64,000 nt of DNA from Dehalococcoidia bacterium (GCA_965207995.1 OZ242299.1:592064-656063), one strand, 5' to 3'. Shown: positions 36,951 through 45,606, counted from the first letter of the stretch. Made by a program: numbers and translations. Notes: generated by a model not told the origin, from the sequence alone.

Positions 36951-38243
36951 TTGTACCTCCCGTCGTTCCGCCTGACACCACCGGAATCGATCCTGGGGCG
37001 GCGCGTCTTCTACGGATGGTGGATCGTCGCCGCCGCCTTCGGCCTGACCTCGATGATCTCGGGGTTCTACTTCCTCGGCTATTCCGCCTTCGTGAATCCC
37101 CTCTCCGAGACGTTCGACGTGGGCGTCGACCGCATCGGGCTCGTCTTCGGCATCTCAAGCTCCGTCGCCGCCGTTTTCGGCCTGGCGGCGGCGCGGCTGA
37201 GTCCCCGTCTGATGACCTTCGCCGGCGTGCTCATGATGGGCGGCGGCTTCCTGCTGGTGGGACGGGCCGAGTCGTTCCTGCTCTACGCCTTCATCCAGAC
37301 GGTACTCGTCGCCACCGGCGGCTTCATGGTGGTGATGTACGGCTCGGGGTCGATCATCAACAACTGGTTCGCCAGACGCCGAGGGCTCGCCTTCGCCATC
37401 GGCATGACCGGAGTCAGCTTCGGCGCCGTCCTGGTCAACCTGACGCAGTTCCTCATCGACAAGATCGGATGGCAAGACGCGACGCTGATCCTTGGCGGGA
37501 TCGTGCTCGCCGTGGGCCTCCCGCTGGCCGCGATCATGCGGGCGCGCCCCGAGGACGAAGGGCTGCTGCCCGACGGGGACCCGCCGCGCCCCGGCGTCAC
37601 CGCGCCCGCGGCGCGGGCCGCACCTACCTCGCCCGCCTATGCCGGTTTCACCCTGCGGGAGGCCCTGTCCACGCGGGTCTTCTGGGTGATGAGCGCCGCC
37701 TTCCTGGCGCGGAACTTCGTCACCACCGGCTTCGGCTTCTGCTTCATCCCCGCCATCGAAAACAAGGGCTTCACCGCCGCCGCCGGCGCATCGGTGCTGA
37801 TCGTCTTCGCCGTGATGACCGTGCCCAGCCGGCTGACCTCGGGCTACCTTGGCGACCTCTGGCGGCGCAACGTCGTCGCGGGCGTGATGATGGCGGGCAT
37901 CGCGGCGTCGATGCTGATCATGGTCTGGGCGGAGACGCTGGCCGTCATCATCATCTTCCTCTTCATCTACGGCTCCTTCTGGGGCGGGATCGGCGGCGCC
38001 ATGTCGATGGCCCTCCGCGGCGAGTTCTTCGGACGCCGGAACTTCGCCGCCATCGCCAGCGTCACCACGCTCGTCATCGGGCTCGGCGAGATCGCGGGCC
38101 CGACCGTCGCCGGACGCATCTTCGAGGAGACCGGCTCCTTCCAACTGGCCTTCGTCGCCTTCGCCATCGCCGCCCTCCTCTCCGCCATCGCCCTCCTCTC
38201 CCTCCGCCCCCCGCGGCGCCAACGAAATCGGCCAACAGACTAA
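36951..38243 (+). CDS. MFS transporter (paralog of 45607..46857)
   Basis: 12 predicted TM helices; the N-terminal 'RRVFYGWWIVAAAFG' parallels 'GRIFYGWWIAGAAAV' of the paralog. Start codon uncertain (TTG at 36951). Confidence 0.75.
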   Translation: MYLPSFRLTPPESILGRRVFYGWWIVAAAFGLTSMISGFYFLGYSAFVNPLSETFDVGVDRIGLVFGISSSVAAVFGLAAARLSPRLMTFAGVLMMGGGFLLVGRAESFLLYAFIQTVLVATGGFMVVMYGSGSIINNWFARRRGLAFAIGMTGVSFGAVLVNLTQFLIDKIGWQDATLILGGIVLAVGLPLAAIMRARPEDEGLLPDGDPPRPGVTAPAARAAPTSPAYAGFTLREALSTRVFWVMSAAFLARNFVTTGFGFCFIPAIENKGFTAAAGASVLIVFAVMTVPSRLTSGYLGDLWRRNVVAGVMMAGIAASMLIMVWAETLAVIIIFLFIYGSFWGGIGGAMSMALRGEFFGRRNFAAIASVTTLVIGLGEIAGPTVAGRIFEETGSFQLAFVAFAIAALLSAIALLSLRPPRRQRNRPTD

Positions 38244-38298
38244 CGCTGCTTGACGATACTTCTATGCTCTATTAATAGAATCAAGAGGTTGGGCTGCG

Positions 38299-38799
38299 AT
38301 GAACTTCCAGATCGGCGGCAAGCAATATGAGGTGGCGCGGGAGGACGTGCTGAACGCCACGCGCGGCCGGATGCCCGAGACCGCCGACGGGCGGCACAAG
38401 TACTTCGTCAAGCTCCACGGGCGCCACTACCCCATCAAGCAGGTCGTCCAACTGACCACCGGTCTGAAGCCGCTTGAATTCACCTCGCAATACGCGCTTG
38501 GAATCCTCACCGCGCTGGACTTCGACATCTCCGATCGTTCCTCTCTCGGTCCGGCGTCTCCCGGCGACTCCAATGGCGGACAAGCACTGCGGCTTCTCGT
38601 CGTATTCGAGACCGATGAGGACGGCTGGGAAGTAGCAAGCTGCCCGACCCTGCCGGGCTGTCACAGCCAGGGCCGGACGAGAAGCGAAGCGCTAGCGAAC
38701 ATCCAGGAGGCCATCAGAGGCTACCTCGCGAGCATGCGCGAGCATGGCCTGCCCACTCCTCCCTCTTCAGAATTTGAAGTCTTGGACATGACCGCGTAG
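38299..38799 (+). CDS. Protein with an N-terminal unknown domain fused to a C-terminal HicB-like (UPF0150) fold
   Basis: C-terminal 'LRLLVVFETDEDGWEVASCPTLPGCHSQGRTRSEALANIQEAIRGYL' matches the HicB-fold consensus. The N-terminal ~100 aa are unrecognised. There is no DNA-binding tail. Confidence 0.6.
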   Translation: MNFQIGGKQYEVAREDVLNATRGRMPETADGRHKYFVKLHGRHYPIKQVVQLTTGLKPLEFTSQYALGILTALDFDISDRSSLGPASPGDSNGGQALRLLVVFETDEDGWEVASCPTLPGCHSQGRTRSEALANIQEAIRGYLASMREHGLPTPPSSEFEVLDMTA

Positions 38800-39020
38800 T
38801 GGCCCGCTTGCCTGTGCTATCGGGCGACGAGTTCGTCCGGACAGTCGCCAAGATCGGATTCGCCCTCGACCGCACCGAGGGCAGCCACATGATCTTGCTA
38901 GGGCGGACGGGAAGGAGGCTCTCCGTCCCACGGCACAAGGAGCTAGGCCGCGGCTTGCTGCGGGCGCTGATCCGAGACGCCGGCCTGACGCGGGAAGAGT
39001 TCCTCGACCTGCTCCGTTAG
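38799..39020 (+). CDS. hicA: HicA-family toxin (GTG start overlapping the upstream stop)
   Basis: 73 aa 'EFVRTVAKIGFALDRTEGSHMILLGRTGRRLSVPRHKELGRGLLRALIRDAGLTREEF' matches the YcfA/HicA signature. Confidence 0.65.
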   Translation: MARLPVLSGDEFVRTVAKIGFALDRTEGSHMILLGRTGRRLSVPRHKELGRGLLRALIRDAGLTREEFLDLLR

Positions 39021-39091
39021 ACCCTCCTCTCCCTCCGCCCCCCGCGGCGGCGTTGACCCCGCCCCGCACCGGCCGCTAGGGTGGCCGCGTT

Positions 39092-41240: not shown

Positions 41241-41448
41241 GACCCCTCCTCCACCGGACTATCGCGGCTAGGGTAGCCACGCCCGCCGCCCCCGTCCACC
41301 GCCGCGCCCCGCCGGGGACCCGTGCAGCGTTGCCACCTTCGGGCGGCAAGCTCGCGGCGGGGCAGCCAGTGGATGATTGCCACTGACATCGCTATATTGC
41401 CTATGTGCGATGCACTCGCTAGGGTTCGACCGAACATATGGAGGCTCT

Positions 41449-42816
41449 ATGCCGCGCAGCGACCTTCCATTCGGTAGTGAATTCTCCCCCGCCCAGGTCG
41501 AACTTCCCGCGCTCCTAGAACTGGCCTCGGAGCACGGGCCGGACTGGAAGTCCTTCGAGGCATCTGTGCGGGACCGGTACTTGGCCGGCCACAAGACTTC
41601 CAACTACAACAGAAATAAGCTCGCCAACAACACCAAGCTCTCCCTCCGCGCCTATGGCCTCATCGGCGAGGATGACACTACGCTAACTGAAGTAGGCCAG
41701 GCTTTGCACGGTCTGCGACACGACGAGGCTGCCCTCTATAGAGCGTTTGCTCAACACATTCTGAAGAACCGCCAAGGCATGAACTTCGTGCAGTGCATCC
41801 TCGACATGCAGGCCGCCGGGGAGAACATCAACCTCAATGCGCTGCGCCGCGGACTCGAAGAACGGAACCTTGCCGTTCCGCGTGGCGGCAAGCATATGAG
41901 TACGCTCCGCCTGTGGCTCGAAAAGGCTGGCGTCTTCGTCTCCGGGTATCGCGTCGACCAATCGCGGCTCAACGAGATCCTGGGGGTAAAGATCGAGGAG
42001 TTCGAGGCGATCGCAACCTTCACTGCTGAGCAGCGCGCCTACCTCAAAACGCTCGCCAACATGGGTGGCGGGGGACCGCACGCCTCGAACGATATCGAGC
42101 GCCTCGCCACCGCCACCTATGGCATCGCCTTCAACGAAAAGGGCCTTCCGAAGCAGGTCCTCTATCCGCTCCGGGACGCGGGCTATATCGATCTGGAACG
42201 CGGTACGAAGCAGGCCGGGCGCGGCGCAAAGCCCTTTCTCGTCACCGCCACAGACAAGTTGGCGGCGGACGTCATCACTCCACTGATCGATCAAATCGAG
42301 CAGCAGTCCCACGCCGACCTCCGTCCCTTGCTCCGGAAGCCGCTCCATGAGATCCGCGCGGAGCTACGCTCTAGAGACCGCCATATCCGGGGCCTTGCGC
42401 TCGAGGCGCTCGCCTTCAAGTTGATGCGCCTGATCGACTTGGACTACGTAGCCACCCGCCTCCGCGGAAGCGCCACCGGCGGAGTCGAGGTCGACCTGAT
42501 CTTCGAAAGCGACCGGCTTGCGTTCCCCCGCTGGCAGATCCAGTGCAAGAACACGCCCAGCGTTTCGGTCGACGATGTAGCGAAGGAAGTCGGCCTCACC
42601 CATTTCCTGGAGAGCAACGCCATCGTCGTGGTCTCGACCGGGGCGGTTGGAAGCGACGCCCGTCGGTTCGCCGATACAATTGCTACCGAATCCGGCTTGC
42701 GTCTCGTCATGATGGACGGCGCTGATCTTGAACGTATTGAGACAAATCCCGCGTACATCGCCGAGGTTTTCGATCGAGAGTCCCACCGCGCTTTGCTTTG
42801 CAGACCCTTGAATTGA
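41449..42816 (+). CDS. Mrr-like restriction endonuclease catalytic-domain protein with a large N-terminal uncharacterised domain
   Basis: C-terminal 'GLALEALAFKLMRLIDLDYV...GGVEVDLIFES...WQIQCKN' resembles the Mrr_cat D-(D/E)xK core. GGAGG RBS before the ATG at 41449 (track start 41377). Low-GC island. Confidence 0.6.
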   Translation: MPRSDLPFGSEFSPAQVELPALLELASEHGPDWKSFEASVRDRYLAGHKTSNYNRNKLANNTKLSLRAYGLIGEDDTTLTEVGQALHGLRHDEAALYRAFAQHILKNRQGMNFVQCILDMQAAGENINLNALRRGLEERNLAVPRGGKHMSTLRLWLEKAGVFVSGYRVDQSRLNEILGVKIEEFEAIATFTAEQRAYLKTLANMGGGGPHASNDIERLATATYGIAFNEKGLPKQVLYPLRDAGYIDLERGTKQAGRGAKPFLVTATDKLAADVITPLIDQIEQQSHADLRPLLRKPLHEIRAELRSRDRHIRGLALEALAFKLMRLIDLDYVATRLRGSATGGVEVDLIFESDRLAFPRWQIQCKNTPSVSVDDVAKEVGLTHFLESNAIVVVSTGAVGSDARRFADTIATESGLRLVMMDGADLERIETNPAYIAEVFDRESHRALLCRPLN

Positions 42817-42828
42817 TGAGCAACCGCG

Positions 42829-43680
42829 ATGCAGTCCGTTCTATCGCCCTGGGCTGAAACATTTGACGCCTTCGCGCGGTCAGTCCATCGCAGCGCCATC
42901 ATCGTTGCTCCGTTTATCACTGAGCAGCCTCTCCAGCGATTCGCCTCATTGCTCCATGGAGCAAACCGTCCTCAAGTCAACTTGCTTACCAACTTGGCGA
43001 CGGACAGTTTGCTCCAAGGCTCTCTTGACGCCACCGCGATAGCCGAGTTTTGCAGAGCATTCCCCACAACAACCGTCCGGCACCTTCCCGGATTGCATGC
43101 CAAGGTGTACGTGGCCGATGATCACACCGCAATAATCACTTCCGGGAACCTTACGAATAGCTCGCTCTACCACAATTACGAATACGGAATCCAGGTCCGA
43201 GACCCCAGCGCGGTTCTCGCAATCGCCAGAGACGTAACGGAATATGGAGGCCTGGGAGCGCAAGTCTCCCTTGCTGAATTAGACCACCTTGCGGGGCTTT
43301 CCGAAGTCCTGAGGAATAGGTATGCCAATACGCTGAAGTCCGCTCGGACAAGGTTCCGGAAGGAATTCGAAGAACAGCTAGAGACCACCACCGAAGCGCT
43401 GCGGCAACTGAGAGGGAAACCAGGAGAAAGCACAAACTCGATTTTCAGCAGGACGATCTTGTACCTGTTAAGGAAAGGGCCTCTGACGACAGAAGAGCTC
43501 CATCCCTTGATAAGCAACATCCACCCCGATCTTTGCGACGACCGCGTGGAGAGAGTCATCAACGGGGTACGCTTCGGTCGCGAATGGAAGCATCGAGTGA
43601 GGAGCGCCCAAGGCAGATTGAAGCGCAATGGACTTATCGAGCTTACTGGTTCGGAATGGCGGCTGGTCTCAAGAGAATGA
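42829..43680 (+). CDS. PLD-family (HxK..D) nuclease-like protein
   Basis: 'HAKVYVADDHTAIITSGNLTNSS' fits the HxK(x)4D(x)6 G(S/T)xN phospholipase-D/Nuc motif. A single HKD copy. The C-terminal half is unrecognised. Confidence 0.6.
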   Translation: MQSVLSPWAETFDAFARSVHRSAIIVAPFITEQPLQRFASLLHGANRPQVNLLTNLATDSLLQGSLDATAIAEFCRAFPTTTVRHLPGLHAKVYVADDHTAIITSGNLTNSSLYHNYEYGIQVRDPSAVLAIARDVTEYGGLGAQVSLAELDHLAGLSEVLRNRYANTLKSARTRFRKEFEEQLETTTEALRQLRGKPGESTNSIFSRTILYLLRKGPLTTEELHPLISNIHPDLCDDRVERVINGVRFGREWKHRVRSAQGRLKRNGLIELTGSEWRLVSRE

Positions 43681-43810
43681 CCTCGTCGTAGACCCCTTCG
43701 CCGGAAGTTGTACCACCGGCGAGGTCTGCGAGCGAGTCAAACGCCGTTGGGCCTGCATCGAGCTTGTGCGTGACTATTGCGAGGCCGCGCTTGGGCGCTT
43801 CGCCCGGGAT
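43676..43810 (+). pseudogene. Remnant C-terminal fragment of an N4/N6 DNA methyltransferase (PF01555-like)
   Basis: 'DLVVDPFAGSCTTGEVCERVKRRWACIELVRDYCEAALGRF' matches the conserved C-terminal 'lvlDPFaGSGTTg...GiEi...y...a..R' block. The rest of the enzyme, including the DPPY motif, is absent. Confidence 0.55.
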
Positions 43811-44123
43811 CCAAAAGAGACAGGCAAGCCTGCCACGAGCCCGGAAGCTCCCTACAACTACTACCGCGCCCCCCGGCCGGGCATCTTGTGGAATGGGAAC
43901 ATCGACGACCCACTGCCCGAGGACGGCGGCAAGCAGCGCCCTCTTCCGCCACCCTCACTAGTGTCCAAGTCGTCCAGCGGCTCCGTCCCTCCGAGGGCTT
44001 CGGAGAAGCCATCTAGGCCGTAGCGACACCGGCCCCTTCCGCGTCCGCGCTCGGCTCCCTACCATGTTGCCATGCGTCCCCCCCGCCGCCCTCTGGGGAC
44101 GCGTGTTACGGTAGATCAAGGCA

Positions 44124-44957
44124 ATGTCGCTACACAATCACATTACTCCCCAGGAATACCTTAAGCACTTCGCTCCCTCTCAATATCCAGAACAGATCTG
44201 GAGATATGATAAACAGGGAGACGCCCCAAAGTTGCTCCCGATTAAAGTGGCGGGGCAGAGGAAGGGTTTTCACCCTTCGAAGGAGGAGAGGCGGCTGTTT
44301 GGGATTGAAAGGTCCGCTTTAGCTGCTCTCAATCAGCTACGTGACCATTCGAAAATAGATGAGGTTGGTCGAGTTGCCATAGGGAATTACTTAGCCACAA
44401 TGATGGCCAGGACCGAGCGGACGAGATTCAAGATGGCTGACTATCTCTCTGAAGACATCTCCAGTATAAGGAATCACCCTGAATCATGGGCGATGAAGTG
44501 GAACGTGCCAATGAAGCCAATGCTCAAGATTTTGGGAGATATTGAGGAAAACTTGCAGGGTAATCCACTCCGGACGAAGGAGACCATCCTGAATCAAGCC
44601 CTGTACCTTCCAGAGGTGCTAGACCACCTTGTAGACATGAATTGGCAGGTCTTTACGGTAACCTCGTCTGAGCGGTTCCTAACCAGTGACAATCCGGTTT
44701 TCATAGGTACCAACGGATTGAAGCCCCCGCATGGAGAGTTTCTTTTCCCTCTTGCATCTGAGAGTGTACTGGTAGGAAGTTGGCAGAACCCCAAGCGGAG
44801 TCTCACTTACCGGTCTGCCTCCTTGCAATTCATCAAGGAAATCAACCGATATACGGCTTCAGGAGCGGATCGTTGGCTGTATTTCCACCAGCGTGCGGGT
44901 TGGGTGACCAAAGTTATTCAGAACCCGTCAACCCGAGTCGGTCGAGAACCCATATAG
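44124..44957 (+). CDS. DUF4238 domain protein
   Basis: N-terminal 'HITPQEYLKHF' and central 'LTSDNPV' motifs typical of DUF4238; low-GC island. Confidence 0.65.
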   Translation: MSLHNHITPQEYLKHFAPSQYPEQIWRYDKQGDAPKLLPIKVAGQRKGFHPSKEERRLFGIERSALAALNQLRDHSKIDEVGRVAIGNYLATMMARTERTRFKMADYLSEDISSIRNHPESWAMKWNVPMKPMLKILGDIEENLQGNPLRTKETILNQALYLPEVLDHLVDMNWQVFTVTSSERFLTSDNPVFIGTNGLKPPHGEFLFPLASESVLVGSWQNPKRSLTYRSASLQFIKEINRYTASGADRWLYFHQRAGWVTKVIQNPSTRVGREPI

Positions 44958-45290
44958 CCATTCTTAGAAACCGACGAAGCCGCCAAACTCGTCGCCCACG
45001 GCGTCCTCCCCTGTAGAGGCGCGTCGCGACGCGCCCGTTCCCCCACCGGTGCCAACCCCACCGTTCGCCTCTCCACGGTCAATTCGCGAATCGCCTCGCC
45101 CCCTCCACCCTCCCCCGGCGCGCGCTCACCGCGCGGGACCGTGAGAAATCGTCGTCGAAACGTCGCGCAACGGCGGCCGAAAGGCCGGTGACGGTAGCGC
45201 AGCCGCTGACGAATGGTGACCCAATCGCCGCCAACGACGGCCCGGCCGGCATCGCGCAACAGAGTAGCCGGTGGCGCACCGGCCCCAAAA

Positions 45291-45394
45291 AACGCTCACG
45301 GCGCTCACGAACGTTCACCAACGTTCACGACTTAACAGAAGTGGCCGCGCCGATAACGCTCACGAGCGCTCACCAACGTTCACGAACGCTCACG
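45291..45394 (+). repeat. Two clusters of four tandem 10-bp direct repeats, consensus AACG(C/T)TCAC(G/C)
   Basis: aacgctcacg gcgctcacga acgttcacca acgttcacga ... aacgctcacg agcgctcacc aacgttcacg aacgctcacg. About 210 bp upstream of the MFS gene at 45607. Confidence 0.7.
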
Positions 45395-45606
45395 ACATGC
45401 ACGGTACGTCGGCGGGAAGACCGGGCGGACCGCGGCACGCAACCCCCGGCGTCCCGCGCCGCCACAGACCCCGTGGTACCATCGGCGCGCCCGCGCGTCG
45501 GCGCGGGCCAGGGAGACGGCGCGTGACGGTCACGCTGGACTGGCGGCTGGTCGAGATGGGGTGCCTGGAAGCCTGCCCCGTCTTCGGCTAGGGGCCGGCG
45601 GCGGAC

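Follow-up and report, generated by a model that had tools for sequence, protein, structure and literature searches.

The locus described here raises the question of how a restriction endonuclease gene comes to be followed by a PLD-type nuclease gene and the stump of a DNA methyltransferase gene, and of what kind of restriction such an arrangement could carry out. It lies in a window (the whole stretch of DNA that was analysed) of 64,000 nucleotides from a Dehalococcoidia bacterium, in a block flanked by a 2-hydroxyacid dehydrogenase gene and an MFS transporter gene. The GC content is 0.50-0.64 over 41250-45000 and 0.68-0.73 in the flanks; by gene, it is 0.61 in the endonuclease (R), 0.55 in the PLD gene, 0.50 in a DUF4238 gene and 0.70 in the adjoining MFS gene. 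The lower-GC block proposed by an initial annotation of this DNA is thus borne out by the GC profile, and the four ORFs placed in it exist as described, according to their coordinates and to Pfam. The features of the block are the following:

41449..42816, + strand: R, restriction endonuclease of a type II restriction-modification (R-M) pair, 455 aa (Pfam, family comparison)
41449-42483, + strand: N-terminal region of R, conserved in the endonuclease family
about 42391-42735, + strand: Mrr_cat (PD-QxK) nuclease domain of R, the C-terminal ~115 aa (PF04471, E=1.3e-9)
42480..42500, no strand: recombination crossover inside R, at about codon 347 (60-bp identity profile)
42772..43677, no strand: segment without counterpart in the syntenic R-M allele (blastn against L001/L002, tblastn)
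42829..43680, + strand: gene of the PLD-wH nuclease, 283 aa (PLDc_2, E=2.1e-10; PADLOC, NCBIfam, AlphaFold2)
43096-43149, + strand: HKD motif of the PLD protein (H90 to N107), with a single HxK(x)4D (H90/K92/D97)
about 43414-43677, + strand: C-terminal winged helix of the PLD protein, Mrr_N type (model, weak Mrr_N matches)
43678..43969, + strand: remnant of a PF01555 methyltransferase (M), codons ~254-350 (Pfam, blastn, tblastn)
43970..45084, no strand: second variable slot, which replaces L001 10432-12035 and holds a DUF3644 gene in L004
44124..44957, + strand: DUF4238 gene, 277 aa, GC 0.50 (PF14022, E=1.2e-22)

R starts at the ATG located behind GGAGG at 41449, the TTG at 41377 being merely the mechanical start of the ORF. 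The Mrr-type catalytic core that had been placed at its C-terminus is confirmed by the PF04471 match, and the core residues E347-V-D349 and Q365-C-K367 are kept. However, the preceding ~300 aa, taken before for an unrecognised region and a possible sensor, are a conserved region of an endonuclease family that is widespread, highly conserved (71-92% identity over the best 120 matches) and normally paired with M. In L001/L002, L003 and L005 an intact PF01555 gene comes after the relative of R, and the R of the window is 85-89% identical to those of the intact pairs in L001 and L005. Weak fold matches of R were found with the type IIS enzymes FokI, N.BspD6I and PaqCI, and its N-terminal region is presumably the DNA-recognition part. 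R was also considered as an Mrr-type (type IV) enzyme: Mrr_cat is present, but the Pfam search detected no Mrr_N domain in R and its family normally has a methylase partner, so that R is a conventional restriction endonuclease and not an enzyme of Mrr type.

The PLD gene begins 12 nt past the stop codon of R, and its product consists of a single-HKD nuclease domain, a helical linker and a winged helix (PLD-wH). The single PLD-nuclease motif reported for this protein was found again, as part of HxK(x)4D(x)6GSxN, in which H90, K92, D97, S105, G106 and N107 are invariant among 35 aligned family members. In the AlphaFold2 model (pLDDT 91), helices 202-214, 221-231 and 252-266 form a winged helix together with beta-hairpin wings, and Foldseek matched the model with Nuc, NucT, Zucchini and the nuclease domain of SauUSI (E 1e-4 to 3e-6). 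Weak matches to Mrr_N, below the Pfam threshold, were obtained for 9 of 23 C-terminal domains of the family (best E 0.002); a profile of this domain gave no sequence match to DpnI in the PDB. By analogy with other single-HKD nucleases, PLD-wH is most likely a homodimer. The family comprises 246 clusters at 50% identity (E<=1e-30); its gene is often solitary between housekeeping genes, and one clade has a 71-aa Cys-rich partner alongside it. The best PADLOC/NCBIfam model for the PLD domain is DrmC of DISARM, of which only the HKD core aligns, a winged helix standing at the C-terminus instead. An assignment to DrmC was rejected, given that the score with NF038319, 50.8 bits, is short of the cut-off of 133 and that there are no DrmA, DrmB, DrmMI or DrmD/E neighbours. 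The protein stands as a good candidate for a modification-dependent nuclease, as had been predicted.

The methyltransferase is reduced to its C-terminal end, in agreement with the initial annotation: the ORF 43628-44023 (131 aa) matches only positions 178-219 of the 221 of PF01555 (E=1.7e-10). Motif I (DPFAGS) is found at 43691-43708; neither the catalytic motif IV nor the target-recognition region is left, and the first retained M codon is overlapped by the stop codon of the PLD gene. No second M homologue was found within the 64-kb window. L001 and L002 are syntenic relatives with a backbone 94-95% identical in nucleotides to the window, and at the same site they carry R (456 aa) and an intact PF01555 M (360 aa), so that the picture of a degraded R-M system whose nuclease has outlived its methylase is sustained. 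An intact type II R-M system was discarded for the window itself: R is present, but M lacks motif IV and only codons ~254-350 remain. M is a beta-class enzyme with TSPPF at motif IV, which is more typical of N4-cytosine than of N6-adenine methylases, whereas the published data on PLD-wH enzymes concern m6A; this counts against the explanation favoured below.

Comparison with L001 reveals how the methylase was lost. The segment 42772-43677 of the window replaces L001 9324-10139, a stretch made up of the 3'-terminal 48 bp of R, the spacer and codons 1-253 of M. L004, an independent assembly, has an identical layout of R, PLD gene and remnant at the matching chromosomal site, and the arrangement is therefore not an assembly artefact. 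Two alternative alleles occur at one site, between the same dehydrogenase and MFS flanks: R-M in L001, and R-PLD-ΔM (ΔM being the truncated M) in the window and L004. The 60-bp identity profile showed that the window is a recombinant of both, since 41781-42500 matches the R-M allele of L001 at 98-100% identity and 42501-44060 matches the R-PLD-ΔM allele of L004 at 97-100%, whereas past the crossover the identity of the window to L001 falls to 70-83%.

The conservation of the gene trio in other genomes was also checked. The R-PLD layout recurs in at least three other genome contexts, as R-PLD-ΔM in L006 and L090/L091 and as R-PLD in L008; the DUF4238 gene is not kept next to R-PLD. L006 and L090 share one junction (PLD stop, CAA(A)TC, M codon 248), and the junction of the window and L004 is the same minus about 25 nt. 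The R-PLD-ΔM loci derive from one ancestral junction just before motif I of M, the junctions at M codons 248 and 254 being one event by descent. Right-hand junctions across the family map to M codons 206, 248, 254 and 258; together with one left-hand junction at about codon 257, they all lie shortly upstream of motif I. The flanks have another history: the R copies linked to PLD genes group with the local R-M alleles and not together (R of the window is 89% identical to R of L001 and 73% to that of L090, which is 90% identical to R of the intact pair in L003), and the same holds for the ΔM remnants. Because the flanks track the local R-M lineage, the cassette spreads by homologous recombination.

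In a census of 46 non-redundant PLD loci that are informative on both sides, 32 (70%) directly adjoin a piece of M, of R or of an alternative MTaX1-HNH_2 endonuclease, and about 30% have no R-M remnant; an M with both motif IV and motif I stands beside PLD in none of the 46. The PLD tree has R-linked genes in at least three separate positions. R is found beside PLD-wH in 6 of 53 loci with an informative upstream flank, and in L062 the upstream R bears a large internal deletion; most PLD-wH genes are without R and adjoin M fragments, HNH fragments or housekeeping genes. The M fragments end anywhere from residue 48 to 257, and the distinct truncation points that abut the cassette number at least 17 on its left side and at least 15 on its right. 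The fragments diverge with an omega of 0.05-0.17, often far less than the adjoining PLD, which indicates that they were functional until recently. That the PLD gene destroyed the methylase gene, and that this pattern recurs family-wide, could not be seen from the sequence of the window, on which the initial annotation was made.

The endonuclease left behind has not remained unchanged. Its N-terminal region is under purifying selection (omega 0.1-0.18), while the omega of the nuclease domain is 0.27-0.35 when R of the window and L004 is compared with R-M alleles (0.30-0.35 for the copy of the window), against 0.02-0.07 among the R-M alleles themselves. At positions with a family consensus of at least 95%, R of the window deviates at 14 of 66 in the nuclease domain; the departures in the five PLD-linked R genes are 14, 14, 8, 18 and 5, those in three R-M alleles 1, 1 and 1, and the family median is 0 (90th percentile 2). 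Every PLD-linked R thus has excess substitutions in its nuclease domain. In all five loci the ORF is intact, the catalytic residues are kept and omega is below 1, and judging from these features R may still be active, in which case it would need a methylase elsewhere in the genome. We infer that the orphaned R has lost activity and that its nuclease domain is degenerating.

The explanation that we favour, with a probability of about 0.55, is that an R-M locus was switched from methylation-sensitive to probably methylation-dependent (type IV-like) restriction by the allelic replacement of M with PLD-wH. The starting state was a chromosomal type II R-M locus with R (N-terminal region and Mrr_cat) and M, a beta-class PF01555 amino-methyltransferase. 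A segment encoding a solitary nuclease, with a PLD domain joined to an Mrr_N-like winged helix, entered by homologous recombination through one crossover within R and a second in the 3' part of M, so removing M codons 1-253 and leaving the PLD gene directly behind R. The winged helix probably reads methylated DNA in the manner of type IV enzymes, and such a nuclease could not coexist with the methylase that it displaced. The locus would then cut marked instead of unmarked DNA, as the DpnII and DpnI cassettes of pneumococcus do, and the orphan R would no longer be fully active. Methylation dependence of PLD-wH is probable by analogy, and we infer its specificity for the product of M.

In Streptococcus pneumoniae, DpnI and DpnII have been described as cassettes that take each other's place at a single locus (Lacks et al. 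1986, via PMC2993543). As far as that account reaches, the likeness is close: related strains carry an R-M system or a solitary nuclease at one locus (methyl-dependent in the case of DpnI, presumably so here), and the two mutually exclusive states are alleles with common flanking homology that are exchanged by recombination. Unlike the cassettes of that account, the homology arms are here the R-M genes themselves, and replacement inside the operon has left R orphaned and M reduced to a stump; the nuclease is PLD-wH and not PD-(D/E)XK-wH as in DpnI; complementary specificity, a feature of the pneumococcal pair, is here a prediction; and the pattern spans many phyla and two R-M operon types. The type IV reading is probably supported by published PLD-wH enzymes, which by their description resemble the family found here. 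The PLD-wH fusions Aba4572I and CbaI were proposed as type IV candidates in a study of 27 members (Front Microbiol 2024; PMC11037411): CbaI showed Dam-dependent toxicity, the behaviour of Aba4572I was anomalous, and purification succeeded with neither. Both have, like the protein of the window, an N-terminal PLD and a C-terminal winged helix in about 280 aa (a comparison by description), and their sources include Chloroflexi-type MAGs. The neighbourhoods published there (amino-MTase then PLD-wH, restriction endonuclease then PLD-wH) match both of the configurations observed here, and self-restriction by the neighbouring MTase was a concern of its authors. The families of PLD-wH and DUF4238 are already known, so the block is not wholly uncharacterised as first thought. 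Truncated neighbouring MTase genes, recombinational spread and decay of the orphan R were not reported in PMC11037411. Mrr of E. coli (type IV) resembles PLD-wH in joining an Mrr_N-type winged helix to a nuclease domain, and R of the window uses the Mrr_cat fold; PLD-wH differs from Mrr in its PLD-type nuclease and its reversed domain order.

The same arrangement could result from hotspot turnover without functional conflict, R-M operons being frequent sites of landing and replacement in defence islands, PLD being one defence gene more that came to replace part of an R-M system, and its specificity being unrelated to the methylase. We regard this as unlikely, if the most tenable of the alternatives. 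The adjoining slot also changes (DUF4238 here, DUF3644 in L004, another gene in L001), compared with L001 there is an additional HicAB pair 2.5 kb upstream, beyond the PLD stop codon there are no conserved element ends, and the loci without R-M remnants point in the same direction. However, the link is to one methylase family in two operon types (R-M and M-MTaX1/HNH), it holds in both gene orders, in both orientations and with PLD divergence down to 40% identity, no intact M stands beside PLD, and young M fragments next to an old PLD lineage require repeated capture. A selfish, homing-like element is also improbable. In this case PLD-wH would attack cells or alleles with an intact methylase, its target being either the motif I region of the M gene or a chromosome methylated by M. 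Repair from the PLD-bearing allele would carry the cassette into R-M operons across phyla, the homology being supplied by R and the 3' part of M or, alternatively, by the 5' part of M together with the HNH gene. The junction immediately 5' of DPFAGS, the most conserved motif of M, would fit this, as would its presence in R-M lineages that share no more than 73-80% identity and whose flanks were renewed from the resident operon, the crossover footprint in the window and the many truncation points abutting the cassette. Nevertheless, common descent and recombination explain the shared junction, the truncation series tracks the PLD tree and fits later nested deletions, and there are no conserved target or end sequences. 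A homing endonuclease gene with host function preserved was rejected, as M is truncated in every case and not preserved as in classical homing. To our knowledge, moreover, there is no homing endonuclease of the PLD family; if true, this explanation would make the cassette a gene drive directed at an epigenetic system, and PLD-wH the first homing-type nuclease of that family.

Two further proposals attribute a function to the pieces that flank PLD. R and PLD could be a two-protein module, with the N-terminal region of R as recognition or sensor subunit and PLD as effector, R being kept because it is needed. The intact R ORFs of the five PLD-linked loci, the low omega of that region and the placement of both genes 0-80 nt apart in one orientation agree with it, but the scarcity of R beside PLD-wH, the deletion in L062 and the grouping of PLD-adjacent R copies with local R-M alleles make it very unlikely. 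Least probable of all is that the pieces of M, such as the 131-aa motif-I fragment of the window and the ~100-aa motif-IV fragments of other loci, are small proteins with a function of their own, which would serve the PLD nuclease as regulators or in the manner of an antitoxin. The window, L004 and L090 have an open ΔM ORF, and N-terminal pieces keep their low omega even between L055 and L064, which share a right-hand junction. Yet ΔM is frameshifted in L006 and absent in L008 and from many other loci, the lengths vary widely, and repeated replacement of the flanks from functional alleles would give a low omega just as well.

The variable contents of the second slot, on the other hand, show that the four genes are not a single module, while the block as a small defence hotspot is supported. 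The DUF4238 protein was correctly recognised: PF14022 matches it at full length (profile positions 2-280 of 281) with 81 bits against a cut-off of 27. PADLOC matched no model to this protein. DUF4238 has been validated, with an E. coli protein, as a single-gene anti-phage system of the P2 prophage hotspot (PMC9122126), with which the gene shares, in a comparison at family level, the Pfam family, the single-gene form and the location in a variable hotspot. Judged by its family, it is a putative anti-phage cargo, separate from R-PLD-ΔM, in the neighbouring variable slot.

The 3.6-kb block of lower GC in the window is a small defence hotspot, made up of a disrupted restriction-modification (R-M) system, the nuclease responsible for the disruption and a defence gene independent of both. 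All four reading frames listed in the initial annotation are found there, and the lower GC that it reported also holds (0.50-0.64 in the island against 0.68-0.73 in the flanks). The observation of the island is confirmed and its earlier interpretation is partly supported: the broken R-M system stands, and neither the novel sensor domain nor the single four-gene module does.

Genes of the island in the window
41449-42816: R, Mrr_cat endonuclease gene, 455 aa; ATG after GGAGG; Pfam Mrr_cat on the final ~115 residues, E=1.3e-9
42829-43680: PLD, 283-aa single-HKD nuclease with a C-terminal winged helix (PLD-wH); Pfam PLDc_2, E=2.1e-10
43628-44023: ORF of 131 aa with the remnant of the methylase M; PF01555 profile positions 178-219 of 221 only, E=1.7e-10
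44124-44957: DUF4238 gene, 277 aa; full-length Pfam DUF4238, E=1.2e-22

The mechanical ORF start of R is a TTG at 41377, and the PLD protein has a single HxK(x)4D motif. The GC content is 0.61 in R, 0.55 in PLD, 0.50 in DUF4238 and 0.70 in the adjoining MFS gene. In PADLOC and NCBIfam, the PLD core gave DrmC-like matches below threshold only, the M stump gave methyltransferase matches, and R and DUF4238 gave no match. tRNA genes, direct repeats and inverted repeats were sought at the island bounds and none was convincing; a promoter/terminator scan of the island returned counts no higher than those of shuffled controls. Across the 64 kb of the window the GC content averages 0.642, less than the 0.68-0.73 in the vicinity of the island, which implies further stretches of lower GC within the window.

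R belongs, as the endonuclease, to a mobile type II R-M pair and is not a solitary Mrr-type enzyme, because its relatives adjoin an intact PF01555 methyltransferase in three unrelated contexts (the syntenic loci L001/L002, and L003 and L005 elsewhere), where a member of the R family is followed, ~10 nt on, by an intact M of 355-361 aa. The R family is large and exceptionally well conserved: the best 120 matches to R are 455-468 aa long and 71-92% identical across their full length, and the N-terminal 330 residues are conserved as strongly as the nuclease domain. The structure search that had been proposed for the two unknown domains was run with AlphaFold2 and Foldseek, and it placed a winged helix in the C-terminal half of the PLD protein and only weak type IIS matches to the N-terminal region of R. 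The model of R, of moderate confidence (pLDDT 72), is helical with winged-helix-like units, and its top matches are the enzymes FokI, N.BspD6I and PaqCI; the sequence of R gave no match against the PDB. The proposal of a novel sensor in this region was not borne out, since it is conserved throughout the R-M endonuclease family and has these type IIS fold matches. On the basis of the model, it is best read as a putative DNA-recognition domain.

The loss of M can be followed in close relatives. The source of L001/L002 is 94-95% identical to the window in nucleotides across a ~14 kb backbone, and here R, M and a gene for 306 aa are enclosed by the 2-hydroxyacid dehydrogenase and MFS genes that also enclose the island in the window. 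Window 42772-43677 takes the place of L001 9324-10139, which spans the end of R, the spacer and codons 1-253 of M. The 3' end of M is retained at 43678-43969, and 43970-45084, with DUF4238, replaces a second L001 segment. A second relative, L004, has at this same locus R, a PLD gene that is 99% identical and an M stump, with DUF3644 where the window has DUF4238. In a 60-bp identity profile, window 41781-42500 is 98-100% identical to L001, and 42501-44060 is 97-100% identical to L004 but just 70-83% to L001; this clean identity switch is a crossover at R codon ~347, where the catalytic core begins. The window R is moreover a mosaic of at least three sources, because identity to each of the three close relatives amounts to just 73-87% in a patch at 41541-41780 (R codons ~31-110), whereas the sequence around it is 95-100% identical to L001.

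The same order of genes, with R, PLD and a truncated M, recurs in L006 and L090/L091, whose neighbourhoods differ and whose PLD genes are 68-72% identical to that of the window, so the search for the gene set in other genomes, suggested earlier, was positive. A Dehalococcoidia MAG (L008) has R and PLD in another neighbourhood, with a PLD identity to the window within that range and no stump detected. The junction in L006 and L090 consists of the PLD stop, CAA(A)TC and M codon 248 (MLTEPGD...), and that of the window and L004 is the same junction less ~25 nt between two GAC triplets. The R of the window shares 89% identity with its counterpart in the intact pair of L001, 85% with that of L005 and 73% with those of L006 and L090; the R of L090 matches that of the L003 intact pair at 90% identity, and the M stumps group like their R genes. 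A single ancient insertion followed by co-divergence was rejected, since the R and M-stump flanks group with local intact R-M alleles whereas PLD and its junction do not. A stump cannot regenerate an intact M. On the simplest interpretation, PLD and its junction have moved among diverged resident R-M operons via homologous recombination in R and in the M 3' end, and the crossover in the window would be the footprint of one such transfer. Conserved DNA past the PLD stop codon, sought as cassette ends, was absent. Sequenced plasmids contained no member of the PLD family, and only distant PLD domains were found, on Agrobacterium and Rhizobium plasmids.

The effect on the endonuclease was assessed by omega (a dN/dS-type rate ratio) and by counting departures at the 66 nuclease-domain columns conserved at >=95% in the R family.

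Omega of R in the nuclease domain (codons 346-449) and in the N-terminal region
Among R-M alleles: nuclease domain 0.02-0.07; N-terminal region 0.08-0.11
Window or L004 against R-M alleles: nuclease domain 0.27-0.35; N-terminal region 0.09-0.18
Window against L004: nuclease domain 0.17; N-terminal region 0.15

The PLD-linked R genes depart at 14 columns in the window, 14 in L004, 8 in L006, 18 in L008 and 5 in L090; each of the three R genes that have an intact M departs at 1, and the family has a median of 0 and a 90th percentile of 2. Wherever M has been replaced, the constraint on R is thus relaxed or altered, specifically in the nuclease domain, which is the outcome expected if full R activity were no longer tolerated. 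The catalytic E-V-D and Q-C-K residues are retained in PLD-linked R, which is not yet a pseudogene. In L062, the R upstream of PLD has a big internal deletion.

A metagenome scan with the PLD profile gave 80 loci, and six-frame profile searches for R, M and other neighbours also covered the earlier loci and the window. Dereplication at 97% left 65 PLD groups, for 46 of which both flanks are informative; in 32 of these 46 (70%), PLD lies directly against part of an R-M gene. Two configurations dominate. In configuration B, that of the window, the Mrr_cat R is followed by PLD and by a C-terminal fragment of M that begins at M codon 206, 248, 254 or 258. Configuration A consists of an N-terminal fragment of M (ending at residue 48 to 257), usually a 71-aa Cys-rich ORF, PLD, and an MTaX1 + HNH_2 endonuclease gene (Pfam) whose 5' truncation, very variable in extent, abuts the PLD stop codon. 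There are variants in which PLD has the reverse orientation and is flanked by the M fragment and the small ORF (L039, L040, L045), or in which the small ORF comes after PLD (L028, L086, L088). In L016 (1275-1457), PLD is followed by an R fragment, without an M fragment, that starts at codon 337, near the window crossover (codon ~347), and is 78% identical to the window R; the contig ends there. Just 5' of motif I (DPFAGS) lie both the end of the longest M piece upstream of PLD, at ~257, and the starts of the pieces downstream of it, at 206-258. Profile searches of the PLD loci found no M with both motif IV and motif I beside PLD; in L056, a distant PF01555 paralogue lies 3 kb from it. The possibility that the M pieces are poorly aligned full-length genes was rejected, as there is no space between the fragments and PLD and no motif I region near. 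At other loci PLD is solitary between housekeeping genes (polA, pfkB, tig, dnaG, carB) or lies beside defence genes (SIR2-STAND, Schlafen). In a neighbour-joining tree of the PLDs, the R-linked loci fall at >=3 separate places, interspersed with M/HNH-linked ones.

Several neighbours deserve a mention in their own right. The Cys-rich ORF (MRCECQKPG...ERCDxCERF...GGxCxYD; L017 757-966, L055 4768-4974, L073 928-1137 and ~40 other loci) is absent from the window; it stands alone directly upstream of PLD in one large clade, and occasionally downstream. It has 147 homologues, all small proteins, and no Pfam match. In L073 it had been considered as the C-terminus of an M variant, which was rejected because it is a separate 71-aa ORF family. 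The M family also pairs with another endonuclease, MTaX1 (PF20296) + HNH_2 (PF13391), in L027 2718-3503, L042 2397-3182 and L055 5831-6565, and it is this gene that is 5'-truncated and abuts the PLD stop codon in most PLD loci. In L093 (511-3168), a solitary PLD-wH gene is immediately preceded by an IS (rve) and a group II intron reverse transcriptase, neither of which is present in the otherwise identical L092. A second R-M system (Eco29kI-type endonuclease and PF01555-like methylase) is found on the opposite strand beside the intact pair of L003 (11606-13539).

The M N-terminal fragments, compared between loci, have an omega of 0.05-0.17, and their dN is often several-fold below that of the adjacent PLD (e.g. 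0.024 against 0.50 for L061-L080). Because of these values, either the fragments were functional until a short time ago or functional alleles keep renewing their flanks, beside a PLD lineage that is old; on both accounts PLD has become associated with M many times over. A function of the fragments in their own right is a poor fit, as their lengths are variable, that of L006 has a frameshift and L008 has none.

The AlphaFold2 model of the window PLD-wH is confident (pLDDT 91, pTM 0.86). In a structure search, residues 1-145 matched NucT, Nuc and Zucchini, which are nucleases with a single HKD motif, as well as the nuclease domain of SauUSI, a type IV enzyme. After this domain, two long helices lead to a winged helix at ~200-280. 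The C-terminal domain has weak Mrr_N matches in 9 of 23 members (best E 0.002), and its profile had no match among PDB sequences, neither to DpnI nor to any other reader domain; the PLD profile found generic PLD enzymes only. The family is compact, with 246 clusters (50% identity, E<=1e-30), nearly all of 275-300 aa; a separate search gave 956 proteins.

It is proposed, in agreement with the data, that one locus switches between two opposite kinds of restriction: the R-M allele would mark host DNA and cut unmarked DNA, and in the PLD-wH allele the mark would be lost and marked DNA would probably be cut. This proposal is based on the nuclease-plus-reader architecture of PLD-wH, on the solitary occurrence of its gene, on the strict absence of an intact M beside it, and on two published parallels. 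CbaI, a PLD-wH enzyme, is toxic in Dam+ E. coli and not in Dam- (PMC11037411), and the neighbourhoods described in the same work, an amino-methyltransferase (CGATCG-like) followed by PLD-wH and a restriction endonuclease followed by PLD-wH, correspond to configurations A and B, likened by architecture and neighbourhood description. DpnI and DpnII are alternative cassettes at a single locus (PMC2993543). The authors of the PLD-wH study raised the self-restriction problem posed by an adjacent methylase (PMC11037411); in the PLD family studied here this puzzle is answered, as the methylase genes beside PLD are truncated. Two rivals to the proposed switch are kept. The more radical one is that PLD-wH is a selfish, homing-like drive against the methylase, and the more mundane one is that the hotspot simply turns over and PLD has no functional connection with the methylase.

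Motif IV of M is TSPPF, which we take to suggest N4-cytosine and not N6-adenine methylation. CGATCG, the specificity predicted for a methylase beside a PLD-wH (PMC11037411), occurs 13 times in the window against 35 expected (z=-3.7) and is among the three most under-represented palindromic hexamers. Palindrome avoidance was rejected as a specificity clue, as CTCGAG, GGGCCC and most GC-rich palindromes are also depleted in the window. L008 was considered as the published CbaI locus and rejected, since there is no Leu-tRNA ligase gene beside R.

None of the single parts of the island is of a new kind: type II R-M systems, DUF4238 and PLD-wH candidates for type IV enzymes are all known. We could not find a prior description of the placement of PLD-wH inside an R-M operon, of its family-wide tie to truncated methylase genes, of evidence that it spreads by recombination, or of the matched decay of the orphan endonuclease. 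The conflict between methylases and methyl-dependent nucleases has hitherto been argued mainly from transfer experiments and the single DpnI/DpnII example; here there is a natural, widespread record of it at the sequence level, in which a single nuclease family lies time and again within the remains of a single methylase family, traces of recombination can be seen and the orphan restriction enzyme is seen at several stages of decay. Closely related strains with R-M or R-PLD alleles at one locus offer a testable system, and they open the questions of whether populations keep complementary "cut unmarked" and "cut marked" immunity and of the fate of a restriction enzyme once its methylase is lost. 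Annotation pipelines will call such loci "methyltransferase + nuclease" pairs even where the methylase is merely a stump.

DUF4238, which has the lowest GC, sits in a second variable slot, where L004 has DUF3644 and L001 yet another gene, and at other loci it does not accompany R-PLD, so that the four genes do not form the single module envisaged earlier. One DUF4238 protein, of a P2 prophage hotspot, protects E. coli from T7 (PMC9122126). It is this variable, unlinked slot and the anti-phage relative that lead us to regard the block as a hotspot. Another small mobile insertion lies at a distance of 2.5 kb from the island: at 38221-39021, ~800 bp are inserted with respect to L001 between MFS and MR_MLE genes, with genes for a HicB-like antitoxin (38299-38799) and a HicA toxin (38799-39020). 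Finally, the intergenic sequence between the island and the MFS gene, in a region common to L001, contains at 45291-45403 three overlapping copies of a ~31-nt unit of 10-nt repeats (ACGCTCACGA / ACGTTCACCA).
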